Position numbers and translations under genes: made by a program
Shown here: piece by piece, positions 6,376-59,873 of the stretch
Layout: each line of letters begins with the position of its first letter
Position numbering within the stretch: the first letter of the stretch is position 1
Notes under the pieces: generated by a model
Databases searched by the model: none
What the model was told of the DNA's origin: nothing
What the model saw: only the letters and a program-made list of their open reading frames with translations
Source of the DNA: Octopus vulgaris
Taxonomy: Eukaryota
Direction of reading: 5' to 3'
DNA: 64,000 bases
Assembly (NCBI GenBank): GCA_951406725.2
Contig: OX597817.1
Span: 128,712,001 to 128,776,000 of the forward strand

Positions 6376-7121
6376 AACTGATTGGAAGTGTTATCATGTA
6401 CATTGTTTTGTCTTGGTATAAAAGATGAGCTACAGCAAATATTCTGCTCAATACCACAGATTTGCTTGTCAGTTGTTTGACCTTAACCAGTTGAGCATGT
6501 CCCTTAGTGGCTGACGATATGTGCATCTCTGATCACGAGCAGAAGTAGTGGGTGAGCATCATAGCCATGTGTTGAGAAGGATTCTTTGGGGTTTGAATAA
6601 TTCACCTCTGGAAACATAGGTGTTTCGTTCAACGTCCTTAAACAACCCTTATTCAGGGACCTTTTGAGCGGGATGGGTTACTCAACCTGAAGAAAATTCT
6701 AACTGGGCCCCACATGCAAGGTCATGTGCTGTTTATCTTGATATGAGATCACCATGTCGCGCACATATGGTTGTGATGCATGTGCCTGGTGTACCTTTAT
6801 CAGACGGGTAGTCATGATGGGTATATTGGGCTTCGTATATTTTACCCCAGTGTTACTTTGATGGCATGAACTGCTGGAAACAACTCTTATTCAGGGACCT
6901 TTTGAGTGGGATGGGCTACTCGAGCTGAAGAAAATTCTAACTGGGCCCCACCTACAAGATCATGCGCTTTTATCTTGATATGAGATCACCATGTCGCGCG
7001 CACATGATTGTGATGCACGTGGTTGGTGTACTCTTATTAGACAGATAGTCAAGATGGGTATACTGGGCTTCGTATAATTTACCCCAGTGTCGTTTTGATG
7101 GCATGCGCTGCTCTTTCACTC
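6352..7121 (+). mobile_element. (AAT)n-embedded non-coding interspersed element (family E) with duplicated 3' half
   Basis: Homologous to 10760-11318 (opposite strand). About 6640-6875 is repeated at about 6878-7121. Ends in CTTTCACTC followed by (AAT)n. Confidence 0.8.
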
Positions 7122-8799: not shown

Positions 8800-9340
8800 T
8801 TCAAATTTTGGCACAGACCCAGCAACTTTTGAGGGGACGGGTAAGTTCATTACATCGACCACAGCACTCATTTTATCGATCCCGAAAGAATGAAAGGCAA
8901 ATTCGATCCCAGCGGCATTTGAACTCAGGACATTAAGTCGGATGAAATGCCGCTAACAACTTTGCCTGGCGTGCTAACGATTCTACCAGTTCGCCACCTT
9001 GCATATTGATGATTCTTTTTACTTCTTTCCACTAAGGCCTGAAATTTGGAGGGAAGTGGGGTAAGCCGAATACATTTACGCCAGTGCTCCAAAATCATTT
9101 GAACGCGCAACGTTAAGTGCCGCGCGAAAAGTAGCTAAGTATTTCGCCCGGCGTGTTTACAATTCTGCCAGCACGTCGTCTCTAATAAGCCTTTTTACTA
9201 TAGCTAGGCACAAGGCCCGAAATTTTGGTTAGTCGATTACATCGACCCAAGTACTTAACTGGTACGATCCGGAAAGGATGAAAGAGAAAGTCGATCTCGG
9301 CGGAATTTGAACTCAAAACGACTTCAGCAGAAATTGAACT
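8800..9340 (-). mobile_element. Cluster of three degenerate SINE family B copies
   Basis: Repeated GATGAAAGGCAAA.TCGA...GGAATTTGAAC motifs at about 8800-9000, 9020-9180 and 9200-9340. Confidence 0.75.
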
Positions 9341-19790: not shown

Positions 19791-20193
19791 ATCACTGCAT
19801 AATCTGGGAATCCACACCAGTAATGATCCATTCTTCCGCGTGCATATCCCAAAGAAGGTAACAATCTGCTAGTGACTAGCTGGTAGTATTCAGAACAAGG
19901 CAAAGCAAGATACAACGTGGTTTCTGTGGAGAATATTCATTTTAAGTCGACTATACTACTACTCTCAATTATGATTAATTATGATTCTATTTTTAAATTG
20001 TAAATTTAACCGGAGTATATTCATTACTGAATTTTTTTATTCCGAATAAGCACGTTGTACCGAAATGCAATTCGAAAAAACCCGCCATTTACATAGATGT
20101 ATAAGGGGTGAACATTTCTATATACTACGTTGGATACGATGGTTGTTCGTCTGCTATGTTGATTTGGTTCATTCATTATAAATCTTGAATTAT

Positions 20194-20258
20194 GCTTGCA
20201 CTGATGAGTAAAGAGCGCACGCCACTGCACTGATTACGAAACCACAGTGATCTGCAGC
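20194..20258 (+). ncRNA. Type I hammerhead ribozyme motif (Penelope pLTR-like context)
   Basis: Stem I TGCA (20197-20200)/TGCA (20253-56); CTGATGA 20201-07; stem II GTAA/TTAC; GAAA 20238-41; stem III CAC-A-GTG with a C.A mismatch; cleavage triplet ATC (20250-52). Confidence 0.75.
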
Positions 20259-20502
20259 TGAATTCTGTTTTTAAATGACTTGCTTCGAGAGTTACATTCG
20301 GTACGAAATGTTTATTTATTTTAGTAGTTTTAACTTTAAGAGTCCCTCCTAGCGTGTGGCATTTATGTGTAATAATGACCTCTATAAAATATAAATAAAT
20401 ATATTTCAGTGAAAAAATTGGTGGATTTTTTTTCTCTTATGAGGTTTTTCACGCTGACTACTTGATAAATTCTTATGAAGATTTTATCCTATTTTTAAAT
20501 TG

Positions 20503-20567
<65 letters not shown>

Positions 20568-26639: not shown

Positions 26640-26845
26640 ATCCTTTCTACTTTATGCACAAGACCTGAAATTTTGTGGAGAGGGACTAGTCAGTTACATC
26701 GACTCCCAGCTGGTATTTATTCTATCGATCCCGGAATTATGAAAAGCAAAGTTGACCTCAGTGGAACTTGAAGTCAGAAACTAAAAACGGACGATATGCC
26801 ACTAACCACTTTGTCCGGTGTGTTACCGATTCTACCAACCGCATA
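26640..26845 (-). mobile_element. SINE family B copy (degenerate)
   Basis: ATGAAAAGCAAAGTTGACCTCAGTGGAACTTGAA motif. Confidence 0.7.
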
Positions 26846-26862
26846 ATAATGTTAATGGTATC

Positions 26863-26919
<57 letters not shown>

Positions 26920-26921
<2 letters not shown>

Positions 26922-28393
26922 CATCGGGATGGAGTTTGGACTTGAGAAGTGTGCCAAGGCCACTTTCCAGAAAGGGAAAGTGAAGACCATAAATTCAGTC
27001 GTGTTAGATGTTGACACAGTCATAAGAGAGCTTGAGCAAGAACAAACATACAAATATTTAGGGATAAATGAAGGCTCTGGTATTCAGCATGCAAGCATGA
27101 AAGAGAAAATCAGGAAGGAATGTTATAGGAGAGTTCGTGCAGTCCTGAAATCTGAACTAAATGCACGTAACAAGGTGTTAGCTATAAATTCCTTAGCAGT
27201 TCCAGTTGTTACTTATAGCTACAATGTGTTGAACTGGAATATGAGTGAAGTAAAGAATATAGATAGGAAAATACGCAAGCTACTGAGTTGTAATAGGATG
27301 CACCAACCAAAGGCAGACGTAGATCGCCTTTACCTTCCCAGAGCCCAAGGAGGTCGAGGCCTGATCCAATTTGAACTAGCTTACAAAACAACCGCAATTG
27401 GACTGGCCAAATATCTCGAAATATCGAATGACTGGATGCTAAAGCTCGTGGAAAATCACGAGAGACGAAAGAAGCTTCATTCTATCATAAAGGAAAGCAA
27501 AAAATTTGCTATTGATCTCGTGCAGGATACACAAACTGAACAACCCGAGGGAAGTACGGCAACTATTGTTGCAAAGAAGGTGAAAATAATGGCAACGAAA
27601 AAAAGCGCACGAGCAATTGGCTGATAGGTGGGAGGAGAAACCTCTGCACGGCAAATATGTGACCCGCAGCAAACAATCTGATGTTGACCAGAAGCAAACC
27701 CATCAGAGGCTACGGAGCTCAGGGCTAAAAGCAGAGAGCGAAGGTTTCATCCTGGCTGCTCAAGATCAAAGCCTATTAACCCGGAACTACCAGGCTAATG
27801 TGATGAAAAATGGAGCAGACCCAAAATGCCGATTCTGCAACGACATGATTGAAACAGTGGACCACCTAATCTCTGGATGTAAAGTCTTAGCACCAGTGGA
27901 GTATAAATTAAGACATGACAGAGTTGGCCAATATCTACACTGGCTAATAAGTCGGCATTACAATATCAAAACTGCCGACAAGTGGTATAATCAACACCCT
28001 GAGGCTGTAACTGAAGGAGAAAATGTAACCATTCCGTGGGACTTTACAGTACATACAGACCGAACCATCAAGGCCAATAAACCAGATATTGTTGTGAAAG
28101 ACCAAAACAATAAAGTTTGCTTATTGATCGACATGAGCATCCCCTGTGATCATACTATCTCAGCGAAAGAGTTTGGCAAGCTCAGAAAGTATAAAGACCT
28201 GCTCATTGAAATTGCAAAAATGTGGCATCTCAAGGCGGTTACAATACCAGTGATCGTAGGAGCACTAGGAATGATCAAGAAGGGAACCGAAAATTATATG
28301 AGAATGATCCCTGGCTTACCATCCCTGCAAGAAGTGCAAAAGATTGTCTTAACTGGTACATCACACGTATTGAGAAGAGCATTGTCGATGTGA
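26920..28393 (+). pseudogene. RT-thumb / zinc knuckle / restriction-like endonuclease polyprotein fragment, one +1 frameshift
   Basis: ORFs 26818..27624 and 27617..28393 join if one A is removed from the A7 run at 27598-27604 (ATKKAHEQLADRW). No in-frame stops otherwise. Confidence 0.9.
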
Positions 28394-28563
28394 GAACTGT
28401 TGCTGCTCATGTATTTTAATTTAACTTAACAAAAAAAAAAAAAATGAACGAACTATTGAGTTTGGTTTAATGGCCTACCAATGTATACTATGAGTTTCTT
28501 TACCCTAGGAGTCGGGAAGACACTCGGCAAGAAATGGAAGCAAATTTGAAAGAAGAAAAAAAA

Positions 28564-28564
<1 letters not shown>
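26920..28564 (+). mobile_element. 5'-truncated R4/Dong-like RLE non-LTR retrotransposon inserted in (TAA)n
   Basis: Encodes the end of the RT/thumb (DIGMEFGLEKCAK, YKYLG), DVDRLYLPRAQGGRGL, KPLHG, a CCHC knuckle (CRFC..ETVDHLISGC), RHD and RLE motifs (KPDIVV..IDMSIP..E..K..KY). Has a 3' UTR. (AAT)n lies at 26863-26919 and 28565-28595. Confidence 0.95.
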
Positions 28565-28595
<31 letters not shown>

Positions 28596-29430
28596 CAAGA
28601 GAAGAATCTTCCGGAGGGACAGTGTCTGTCTCCACTGATATTCATGCTGGGAATGACCCCTTTGAGTGAAATACTACAGAAAACAAAGTTGGTGTATGAT
28701 CCTGGGAAGAGGTAAGGGAAAACTAAACCACTTACTATTCATGGATGACCTGAAACTATTCACAAAAACTCAGGCAGAACTGGACAGCCTAGTCTTGTCT
28801 GTGCGGATTTTCTTCAATGATATTATGATGAAGTTTGGACTCACAAAATGTGCTACGATGGTGATGAGACGAGGAAAGTTTGTTAGGACAAAAGACATAT
28901 GGTTGCCAAGTGGTAAAAAGATGAAGGTATTACAAACTCAATTCAGTTATAAATACCTGGAAATACTTGAGACAGATAGAATCAAACACCGCGACATGAA
29001 GGAAAAGACAAAAAGAGAGTACCTGCGGCGAGTGAAAAAATGCCAGAAACATAATTTCGGCAATAAACACGTATGTCGCTGGAATCCTGAAGTGGACAAA
29101 GGAGGCGTTAAAGGAGATGGACAGGAAATCAAGCAAGCTCCTAACGATGCATGGAGACCATCATCCACTTGCAGACACTGATCGCCTATATATGAAGAGA
29201 GCAAGTGGAGGATGTGTGGAAGACTTCGTGTGTATCGAAAGGAAACCTTGCTTGTATCAGTTTGGAATGAAGGAATATTGAAAGCAGAAGAAAAAGAAAG
29301 GAAGAAGTACAAAAAGGACATGAAGAAGAATTACACATCAAGGGACTACACAATCAATTCCATGTAATTACAACAGAAGTTGCAGGAAAAAATAAGTAAG
29401 ATTGCTTGATGAAAGGAACCCTGAAAAAAG
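28596..29430 (+). mobile_element. Second, more decayed R4/Dong-like element containing the RT catalytic core
   Basis: Decayed RRIF.GD..SPLIF motif, then KLNHLLFMDDLKLF (YxDD-type), FFNDIMMKFGLTKCA, YKYLEIL and ADTDRLYM. Starts directly at the (TAA)n tail of the previous element. Confidence 0.85.
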
Positions 29431-41077: not shown

Positions 41078-41727
41078 CCTACCTATCATGGAACCTCACC
41101 CCAGAAGCAAAAACAAGTTAGCAGTTCATCAAGCAGAGGTCTATAAAATAAATGTCAGATTGAAATACGTACTGGGGTCAGCATGATCAATTAAATTTTT
41201 GAAGGTGATACCCTGTCATGGTGACAGTTGAAAAACAAAACCCAATAAAGTAATGTTTAAAGACTTCATGGCTTCAAATTTAAGGTAATGGATTACTAAC
41301 CAACAAGATTATGAGTTCAAAACTTCGTATTGAACTTCCACTCAATAAGATAACACTATATGTACAGCTCAGTCTACTTGACTTCCAATAAATAACAATT
41401 GTAATTTGAAGTTGAATGATTAGCAGTAAGAAAGATGTCAAGATTTCTTCAAAAACTATTGTGCAGGCAGAGTTGTCTCCCTTAGCTAAAGACTTCAAAA
41501 TTGTGCAACCCAACCTCGTTTTCAAGGTTATTTTTGTAGTAAGAAAAGAGTTATTGTGAAAAAAAAAACATTCTTTATTCGGTAGCCGAAAGATTACTCA
41601 GTTTTATTTCCTCATACGTCAAAATCGGTCACTCAATTTTCGAATCCATAAAGAACATACGCACACACACACAAGCTCTATTTTATATATTAAGACACAC
41701 ACACACGCACACACATAAGCAAAATAG

Positions 41728-42029
41728 TTGTGAAATCCAAGAAGAGATCAGAGTAGTAACTATAGTAACAAGTTATTACTAGTTTCACCCCAGACAGATC
41801 TTCCCCCAGATGGTTTACAGGTGCAGCGCTGCACCCTATTATATTGCTAGCACGGGGGAGCGAACCCCTACCATCCTCTAGTAGACAACAGGATCGCGAG
41901 ACTGTCACAGTTTCGAGCTGGATGGCCTATCCTCAGTCGCGAGTACCCGGCTGTCAGAGCGGTAGCCAGGGTCCACTCCAGCCTGCAATATATTGTAAAC
42001 AAAGCAACTATCGATCACTGGTTTGCAAC
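41728..42029 (-). mobile_element. Candidate non-LTR retrozyme (small non-coding hammerhead-containing retroelement)
   Basis: GC-richer, hairpin-rich 302-bp segment between 11-bp direct repeats AAGCAAAATAG (41717-41727 and 42030-42040), with an internal hammerhead. Confidence 0.6.
41894..41942 (-). ncRNA. Type I hammerhead ribozyme
   Basis: Minus strand reads TCGCGA CTGAGGA T AGGC CATCCA GCTC GAAA CTG TGA CAG TC TCGCGA: 6-bp stem I, intact core, 4-bp stem III and a GUC triplet. Stem II has an A.C mismatch at the 10.1-11.1 position. Confidence 0.85.
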
Positions 42030-42184
42030 AAGCAAAATAGCTAGTTATATATATATATATATATATATATGCTTACTTACACATACGTATGCACGTATGT
42101 ATGTGTGTACCTGCGTGTATATGTGCGTATACGTGAGTGTAGATATGTATGTGTGAATATGTATATATATCTTATCTTTTATGT

Positions 42185-45332: not shown

Positions 45333-45632
45333 ATGGCTGCCCCCTCGTTATCGAGTATGGCCTTTGCACGAAGCTTAACTGTTACTGGTGCTGAGATCGA
45401 ATGTGACTTTTTAGCCCAGCTAAAGATCTACAATGTCTTGTACAAAATTGGCAACTAAAACCTTTACTGGTAATAGCCGGCTGTAGTTGTAACTGGGCGT
45501 CATGTACCTTTGCATGTCGTTTAAGTCCTCCTGCCGAATTACACTCTCTTCCACATGCCCGACAGATATGATTAGTATGGTGTGTTACACCACCACCAGT
45601 TGCCAGTTTGTCACTCATCTGTCTCTTTTTAT

Positions 45633-45635
<3 letters not shown>
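45327..45635 (-). mobile_element. RTE-like LINE 3' end encoding two C2H2-type fingers, inserted in (TA)n
   Basis: HICRACGRECNSAGGLKRHAKVH...FSCQFCTRHCRSLAGLKSHIRSQH*, then a short UTR and TAATAA. The C..C.R.C.S..GL.SH.R terminus is typical of RTE-clade ORF2. Confidence 0.7.
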
Positions 45636-45690
<55 letters not shown>

Positions 45691-45695
<5 letters not shown>

Positions 45696-45899
45696 TAATC
45701 CAAATAAGAAAGCACAAAAAAACACAACAACGCGAGGACGTGGAACAAATATAGTATTATTGGGCGCTCAGGAAAGAAGGAAAGAAGGAGGGTTTAACGT
45801 TTCGAGCGGAGCTCTTCGTCGGAAACATAGGAGAAGGAAAGATCCAGAGGAGGGAAGACAGAGGAAAAAAATCGCCAACGGTACACACGAGGTCACATT
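45691..45899 (-). mobile_element. Penelope-like pseudo-LTR fragment ending in (TA)n
   Basis: Pyrimidine-rich minus strand containing a minimal hammerhead; abuts (TA)n at 45636-45690 and the head half of a family A SINE (45900-46063). Confidence 0.65.
45792..45826 (-). ncRNA. Minimal type I hammerhead (palindromic stem III, dimer type)
   Basis: Minus strand reads GTTT CCGACGA A GAGC TCC GCTC GAAA CG TT AAAC: U4C core variant, ACGT palindrome, GUU triplet. Confidence 0.75.
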
Positions 45900-58672: not shown

Positions 58673-59873
58673 CAAGGGGTGCAGAAACGTTCCTGGCTTT
58701 AAGGCTATCGTGAAAGGGTGGAATTGTTACCTTTTGCAGGCTAGGTGGGACAACTATTTTGGAGAAGATAGGCAAAAAATCATGAAGTTATACAATATAT
58801 CTTTTCCTTTTTTTTTTGCTAATTTAACACATGAGTGCAGCTCCTACAGTGGATTTTGGTAAACTGAACCACGATCTGTCATGAAGTTCCTCTTTTTGCG
58901 AAGCAAAGGAGTGGTGGAAATCTATAGCGAGATGAAGGAAATCTTGAAGGATAGCTGCCTATATTAATCTTCAATAAATATCTGTCTGTTAAGGTTTCAG
59001 GCTGGTCATGTTGAGGTCACAGATGAACCCCGGTCAGGACAGCCAACTTCCGCAACCACAGAGGACAAAACCGACGATATGCACGTCATGATTCTCGAGG
59101 ACCGTCGGATTTCCGCTAAAGGCATAGCTGCTTGAACGCAGATCAGAAGCGCATCAGAATGATGACATCAAAGGCGATTTTGGACACCGGTTTGCTGCGG
59201 CAGAGGGTGATTTTATGGCTCGTTCAGTTACCATGGATGAAATTTAGCTTCATCATTATGATCCCCAGACCAAGCAGCAATCAGTGGAGTGACGCCACAG
59301 TGATTCACCGCGTCCCAAGAGGTTATGGACCCAGAAGTCAGTTGGAAAGATTCTGGCTTCAGTGTTCTGGGAAAAACGCGGGTTACTCATAAAATACCTG
59401 CCAAAGAGTCGCACCATCAACGCAGAAAACTGCATGTCTCTATTGGATGAACTGTGTGAAGCTTTGAAGCAGAAACGCTGTGAAAGGCTGAGCTGTGGTA
59501 TCCTGTTTTTTCAGGACAATGCACCAACATACAGAGTACAGGAAACTCTACGGAAAATACGCGACTTAGATTTCGAATTGGCAGACCTTACTCTCCTGAT
59601 TTGGCCCCCTCCAATTATCACCTCTTTCCGCGACCGAAGAAACATCTCAAGGGAACGAATATTTCACTCCGATTCGGAAGTGATCGCTGCTACAGAGGCC
59701 TGGTTGGAAGACCACCTTCCGAGTTATTTTTTTAGAGGGCTTAGACAAAAGCTGAAGGACTGTTGCAATAAGTGTATGAATCTGAGAGGGTAATATGTTA
59801 AATAAAATCATAATTAATTGACACTCCTTTTATTTACGTTTACCCAACACCAGGAACTTTTCAGCACCCCTCG
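58673..59873 (+). mobile_element. Near full-length mariner-like element with transposase pseudogene
   Basis: TIRs CAAGGGGTGCAGAAACGTTCCTGG / CCAGGAACTTTTCAGCACCCCTCG|TA. Peptides DEPRSGQPTSATT, VTMDEI*LHHYDPQTKQQS, LFFQDNAPT and PDLAPSNYHLF (DD34D-type), disrupted by stops and frameshifts. Confidence 0.92.

Follow-up and report, generated by a model that had tools for sequence, protein, structure and literature searches.

A decayed copy of a hammerhead-bearing repeat, probably a non-LTR retrozyme, in a repeat-rich genomic window

Background

The closest described systems are the animal non-LTR retrozymes, which the consulted parts of the study on coral, mussel and axolotl (PMC7229834) present as non-coding, self-paired units of 150-450 bp that occur in many copies, have a GC content below 50% and carry a single type I hammerhead each. 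According to the same parts of that source, the mussel family, a known mollusc family, has units of 350-390 bp, target-site duplications (TSDs) are optional and longer than 4 bp when present, and ligation by RtcB in vitro was shown for the axolotl and mussel retrozymes. Excerpts of a preprint on vertebrate retrozymes (bioRxiv 10.64898/2026.07.22.740005) describe dispersed monomers beside head-to-tail forms and a Penelope origin, and in Xenopus only one of nine predicted retrozyme dimers was cleaved. The class is known, but in the passages cited the circular template and the enzymes supplied by Penelope are still inferred.

The second related group are the Penelope-like elements. Inverted 5'-truncated neighbours have been described for their insertions (excerpts of PMC8557442 and PMC3846280), which may lie in microsatellites without a clear TSD (PMC8557442, in part). 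The sections of PMC4209133 that treat their ribozymes mention a palindromic helix III and one additional nucleotide between A9 and G10.1, and the minimal form has a helix II of 7-8 bp, a helix I of 4-5 bp and little helix III; animal type I hammerheads of canonical size have helices of 6 and 4 bp. Regarding cephalopods, Penelope families are listed in a repeat annotation of octopus whose available text has neither the word ribozyme nor the word hammerhead (PMC13282606), and that of a squid genome paper gives one sentence to 235 Rfam hammerhead matches (PMC6962438).

Results and discussion

The insertion and its surroundings

We analysed a stretch of 64,000 nucleotides (the window), which is eukaryotic and repeat-rich (GC 0.37, 114 rows of tandem repeats, plus dispersed repeat families), with a repeat landscape that may resemble those of octopus genomes. 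The insertion under study (Table 1) carries on its minus strand the type I hammerhead described in the initial annotation, with a 6-bp stem I, CUGAGGA, GAAA, a 4-bp helix III and the GUC site, and the cut is predicted, as there, between 41900 and 41899 of the minus strand. A strict hammerhead descriptor matched the window only once, and none of 300 dinucleotide shuffles of the window gave a match. Rfam gave no match in the window at gathering scores, and at E up to 10 it gave only microsatellite-driven matches and no hammerhead family. In the sense of the hammerhead, the distance of the ribozyme is 147 nt to the 5' end of the insertion and 183 nt to its 3' end.

Table 1. Features of the insertion and of the sequences adjoining it
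Feature	Position	Strand	Remarks
Whole insertion, 330 bases	41717..42046	-	One 317-nt unit (41730-42046) plus overlap; boundaries set by comparison with the joints and loose ends found in other copies
5' copy of the terminal overlap	42030..42046	-	Plus strand AAGCAAAATAGCTAGTT; read as element sequence, not TSD
3' copy of the overlap	41717..41729	-	Repeats the first 17 nt of the unit; CTAG (4 nt) shorter than in other copies
Type I hammerhead	41894..41942	-	Stem I 41942-37/41899-94 (6 bp); CUGAGGA 41936-30; one additional U at 41929; helix II, decayed in this copy, 41928-25/41918-15; GAAA 41914-11; helix III, a palindrome, 41911-01
Long rod (predicted) that prolongs stem I and has the ribozyme at its tip	41838..41992	-	z -2.88; pair probabilities 0.94-1.0
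Perfect palindrome hairpin in hypervariable stretch	41820..41835		Not in most copies; from fold prediction and depth
Deletion site in this copy	41773..41774		Most copies 33-40 nt longer here
(TA)12.5 microsatellite	42046..42070		Adjoins the 5' end; likely target
CA-rich, AT-rich tract	41656..41716		Adjoins the 3' end; masked as repeat in the contig alignment

The GC content is 0.49 inside the insertion and 0.35 in each flank. The 11-mer AAGCAAAATAG that was reported to bracket this GC-richer segment has exactly two copies in the window (41717 and 42030), 302 bp apart, and no second copy of the insertion was found within the window.

Regarding the coding content, none of the 48 frames of at least 45 aa between 39869 and 44016 (around 2 kb on each side of the insertion) matched a reverse transcriptase (RT) or a GIY-YIG domain, and the frames over the insertion had no Pfam match. 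A profile search of the window frames found weak RT, zf-RVT and mariner-type transposase fragments at least 12 kb from the insertion. We observed broken frames of a non-LTR retrotransposon at 26806-29181 (+), with weak zf-RVT and RVT_1 matches, which may be R4/Dong-like, a fragment of a mariner-type transposase at 59293-59793 (+) (Transposase_1, E 5e-10) and, at 45382-45756 (-), a frame encoding C2H2 zinc fingers. A separate high-copy repeat of around 200 bp (41458-41655), ending at the CA tract, lies immediately to the left of the element; it was present in all four of the sequence runs aligned below, and no joint between it and the hammerhead element was seen among the joints listed. Finally, a unit of 237 bp, which is of retrozyme size, occurs twice in tandem at 6640-7112 (87% matches), and a relaxed descriptor scan gave no hammerhead match there.

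Copies of the element in other sequence runs

Words of the insert were present in 19 runs from seven studies. We aligned four of these runs to 41440-42155 at a minimum likeness of 80%: X1 and X4 from organism A, X5 from organism B and X9 from organism D. X1 may be the source of the window itself, whereas X4, X5 and X9 belong to three other studies. The counts given here cover these four runs and leave out the other 15, including the only run of organism C. The runs listed with words of the insert include no RNA run; this says nothing on expression. Both flanks (41656-41724 and 42034-42155) were masked in the contig alignment.

The element is a multi-copy family, with dozens of variant contigs in each of the four runs and thus in three organisms. 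One shared variant, C at 41882, was found in 78, 54, 70 and 78 contigs respectively. In X1 the summed depth over the 3' side of the ribozyme was 14,601, compared with 50-62 for the contigs of this locus; depth itself is no copy number, but this value points to copies that are likely in the hundreds. In X5, a single contig aligns to 41772-42033 with 7 differences; it probably represents this same locus in organism B, and therefore the insertion is likely older than the split between A and B. A 25-letter motif of the family had no match in viral contigs or in prokaryote genomes, and the matches of a pattern scan of metagenomes were rejected as chance, since all 15 had a stem I of only 0-2 bp.

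We found evidence for units joined end to start. Firstly, the loose ends before 41738 (X4, 17 contigs; X9, 19 contigs) share the consensus ..AGCAAAATAGCTAGTTGTAAAATCT, which is the right end of the window copy (42030-42046) running into the left end, the left copy here being without CTAG. In a junction of X9, AAGCAAAAT directly follows the right end of the unit. Secondly, five of the 12 junction rows listed join the right end of the unit (42005-42012) to its left end (41738-41746). These five rows comprise three distinct junction sequences, each shorter than that of the window; they hold 20-33 letters, around 42 being expected, and therefore each has a deletion of its own. One junction common to X1, X4 and X5 probably represents a single locus. 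Furthermore, five of the 32 pieces listed are diverged copies (28-34 differences) that extend to 42031-33, where they have entered the right-hand repeat and reach the mask. We saw no array comprising at least two complete units in these contigs, which are short and masked at both flanks. The loose ends comprise 30 letters, and a common body sequence may lie further out.

Among the 15 joints listed, seven connected opposite strands. In four of the 15, 42004-42019 was linked to an inverted piece whose end lay at 41892, 41903, 41921 or 41947; these inverted neighbours, whose direction is our interpretation, were seen in other copies and are absent from this one. Three opposite-strand joints at 41773 were discarded as possible artefacts of the self-complementarity of the rod.

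Anatomy of the insertion

The other copies change the reading of the terminal repeats. They carry AAGCAAAATAG followed by CTAG as sequence of the element, which is also the arrangement at the right end in the window, and on this comparison the 11-mer, initially taken as a TSD, is the overlap of the element's own ends. Therefore, an empty site should contain no 11-mer; none was seen in the contig alignment with its masked flanks. No true TSD between the flanking microsatellites is discernible in the window sequence. A direct repeat of 11 bp is also weak evidence alone, because around 40 comparable pairs exist in the window: counting by eye among the matches listed, beyond position 8,800 and outside the microsatellite at 51 kb, we found at least 41 direct-repeat pairs of 11 bp or more at a spacing of 100-600 bp. 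The proposal of a SINE-like monomer of 302 bp within a genuine 11-bp TSD, which has in its favour an exact 11-mer bracketing a GC shift, is extremely improbable, since the same letters, followed by CTAG, stand at the ends of many copies in other organisms and the window has many direct repeats of similar length.

The monomer length of 302 bp has to be replaced as well. The unit has 317 nt here, and most copies have extra nucleotides at 41773, as seen in six joint rows and in loose ends of 16, 21 and 13 contigs (X1, X4 and X9 respectively), so that the unit of most copies is of about 350 nt. The half-motif GAAACTAGTA that had been pointed out at about 41777-41786 has no CUGANGA partner and adjoins the deletion of this copy.

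The ribozyme and its variants

Helix II is decayed in this copy. G10.1 is placed at 41928, after the extra U, one base from the position first given (41929). The common letters at 41928 and 41927, which account for 65% and 75% of the X1 depth, give a helix II of 4 bp (GAGC/GCUC), closed by G10.1-C11.1 and with the extra U after A9, whereas this copy has A.C and G-U at those positions. Stem I has 6 bp with a bulge. In the fold prediction the catalytic fold of this copy lies 3.8 kcal/mol above the minimum, and the pair probability does not exceed 0.23 in either helix II or helix III.

Helix III varies in a particular way. At 41905 and 41907, around 95% of the X1 depth shows the two letters of this copy in swapped positions, these changes being read from the depth per position and not as a linked pair, and both forms leave helix III palindromic around one G. 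A micro-inversion was rejected as the origin of this loop swap, since the change is a reversal and not a reverse complement. A one-base loop cannot close within one molecule, and therefore the palindrome can pair only between two ribozymes; the predicted energy is -12.8 kcal/mol for the self-dimer and -0.5 for the hairpin.

Folding of the unit

The initial annotation called the element highly structured, which holds for the core (41838-41992, z -2.88, only one of 200 shuffles as good), whereas the values of the whole insert are modest: z -1.91 on the minus strand, with three of 100 shuffles as good, and z -2.03 on the plus strand. The circular fold of 41734-42046 had a z of -2.18. The rod of the core is made of an 11-bp helix (41979-69/41857-67), an ATATTGC helix and a GACAG helix.

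With regard to the individual pairings proposed before, the long-range pair TATATTGC/GCAATATA is predicted to form (P 0.98). The hairpin of the palindrome GGTGCAGCGCTGCACC is also predicted (P 0.8-1.0) but is not common to other copies, the X1 depth at 41818-21 being 62, which equals that of this locus alone. The hairpins ATCCT..AGGAT and GGGG-ttcgct-CCCC have a pair probability of 0.00, because their bases sit in the long-range rod, and CC(T)GGCT..AGCCGG is absent from the minimum-energy fold, although the register used for this check was imperfect. A promoter derived from a tRNA, suggested by the B-box-like GGTTCGCTCC, was rejected: ARAGORN finds nothing there and predicts no tRNA gene anywhere in the window, and the rod takes up the bases concerned.

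Of the 16 core variants listed, nine fall in stems of the model. All nine retain or restore pairing on the minus strand, compared with six of the nine on the plus strand. These variants come from 40 of 212 rows, selected by the tool, and the stem changes are single-sided. The null probabilities of 0.0004, or 0.005 for seven positions, are optimistic, because 41928, 41948 and 41984 helped to set the pairing model. No excess indicating A-to-I editing appeared among the 16 variants (5 A>G and 4 G>A on the sense strand).

A second hammerhead-like element

Another hammerhead-like element, of a different family, lies at 19987-20507 (+). It has a 19-bp direct repeat 502 bp apart and ends at (TA)n. 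Its hammerhead-like part comprises CTGATGA (20201), GAAA, a 5-bp stem I, a helix II that is long and has partly decayed, and a helix III palindromic around one base. It resembles a Penelope-type ribozyme, does not align with the element at 41.7 kb and folds no better than its shuffles (z -0.96). In both elements CTATTTT lies near the 3' ends of the sense strands (19987-19993, 20489-20495 and 41727-41721), which could be chance or a shared priming signal.

Origin of the insertion

We consider it probable that the insertion is a decayed, dispersed copy of a hammerhead repeat of about 350 nt, likely a non-LTR retrozyme, that was copied in trans by a Penelope-like RT from a circular or uncut multimeric RNA. 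The retrozyme-type reading of the initial annotation is thus supported by a multi-copy non-coding unit, a type I hammerhead, head-to-tail junctions and the lack of an adjoining Penelope frame. The size of the unit and its GC content of 0.49 are within the retrozyme range, and the single type I hammerhead, self-paired fold and many copies are those of the coral, mussel and axolotl retrozymes, as far as the excerpts of PMC7229834 describe them; dispersed monomers beside head-to-tail forms recall those in the cited parts of the vertebrate study (bioRxiv 10.64898/2026.07.22.740005). Unlike in the animal non-LTR retrozymes, with which the comparison is of features and not of sequence, we found no TSD and no multi-unit array in the short contigs, and helix III, although of 4 bp, varies as a dimer palindrome. 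The rod-like fold with a hammerhead is also found in plant LTR retrozymes and hammerhead viroids, for which a circular intermediate has been proposed (parts of PMC5680766 and PMC7761336). However, in comparison with these same passages, the ribozyme here is of type I and not type III and is on one strand only, there is no ribozyme-bearing LTR pair and no 4-bp TSD, and the element is genomic and common to several host species.

The family is likely a further one of the known animal retrozymes, judging by its sequence features. We found no description of it in the literature; the supplements, Repbase, Dfam and the octopus libraries, which were outside this search, may catalogue it. Of the phrase "viroid-like mobile circRNA family", the class stands, having already been described (excerpts of PMC7229834 and bioRxiv 10.64898/2026.07.22.740005), whereas the circularity is something that we infer only.

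The argument for a circular or multimeric template is strengthened by the copy exceeding one unit. Its template needs the end of a unit joined to the start, since copying went across the uncut site and beyond the length of a single unit. A circle and an uncut multimer would both serve, and the data do not separate them. A unit-length RNA could not be released from this copy by two cuts, because it has only one ribozyme.

The mechanism that we propose, whose RNA-level steps we infer by analogy with passages of PMC7229834 and PMC7761336, would comprise five steps. i) Head-to-tail copies would be transcribed from the minus strand. ii) Each unit would be cut once by its hammerhead, likely most readily when two ribozymes pair through their palindromic helix III. 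iii) The monomer would be closed by a host ligase, as RtcB does in vitro with the axolotl and mussel retrozymes (PMC7229834). iv) A Penelope RT and endonuclease would prime at the microsatellite, starting from the end at 41717, and copying would cross the intact cleavage site and continue for slightly more than one turn, leaving the 17-nt overlap. v) The single copy would subsequently have decayed.

A possible but unlikely alternative is that a Penelope-like element, either autonomous or internally deleted, has this unit as its terminal repeat (pLTR plus tail) and that the unit never propagates itself, the overlap and junctions being occasional by-products of the copying of that element. The inverted truncated neighbours of other copies (the four joints of 15 above), the likely microsatellite target and the lack of a clear TSD are Penelope traits (PMC8557442 and PMC3846280, in part), as are, in the consulted sections of PMC4209133, the extra base between A9 and G10.1, here with G10.1-C11.1 in most copies, and the palindromic helix III. 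The junctions also differ among other copies, and the loose ends leave room for a coding or gutted Penelope body. However, diverged copies run into the right-hand repeat, so that the end of a unit followed by its start recurs, and the helices of 6, 4 and 4 bp are of canonical type I, with helix II and helix III of 4 bp each, unlike the minimal Penelope form with its longer helix II (PMC4209133, same sections). Furthermore, no coding remnant lies nearby, in contrast to the RT and GIY-YIG frames of endonuclease-bearing Penelope-like elements, and the overlap of 17 nt is shorter than their tail of 30-40 bp, as given in the excerpted sources.

It is very unlikely that a satellite-like unit spread at the DNA level, by unequal exchange or DNA circles, with an inherited ribozyme that has no role in mobility. 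A copy of slightly over one unit can also stem from a DNA circle or a fragment of an array, and the present data do not demonstrate an RNA intermediate. Nevertheless, the variants keep minus-strand G-U pairs that are mismatched on the plus strand, pointing to selection on RNA, and retrotransposition agrees well with the likely microsatellite target and with the truncated, inverted neighbours.

Going beyond the preferred reading of a decayed retrozyme copy, the family might be still active, as viroid-like circular RNAs of about 350 nt in a host group without a described one, with helix III, in which two transversions keep the palindrome around a single G, selected for pairing between ribozymes, so that multimers would be cut and circles spared. 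We regard this as doubtful. The covariation of helix III offers a natural test of dimer-only cleavage.

Conclusions

For the annotation process, the direct repeats around such elements can be an overlap of their ends rather than a TSD, and this is worth taking into account. If the doubtful reading of a still-active circular RNA family is true, its dispersed insertions of slightly more than one turn would directly record, in the genome, how a Penelope RT reverse-transcribes a circle by rolling. Dispersed copies with overlaps and inverted neighbours in related genomes could test from sequence both the circular template and the enzymes supplied by Penelope, by means of their 3' ends, their 5' ends and the lengths of their overlaps.
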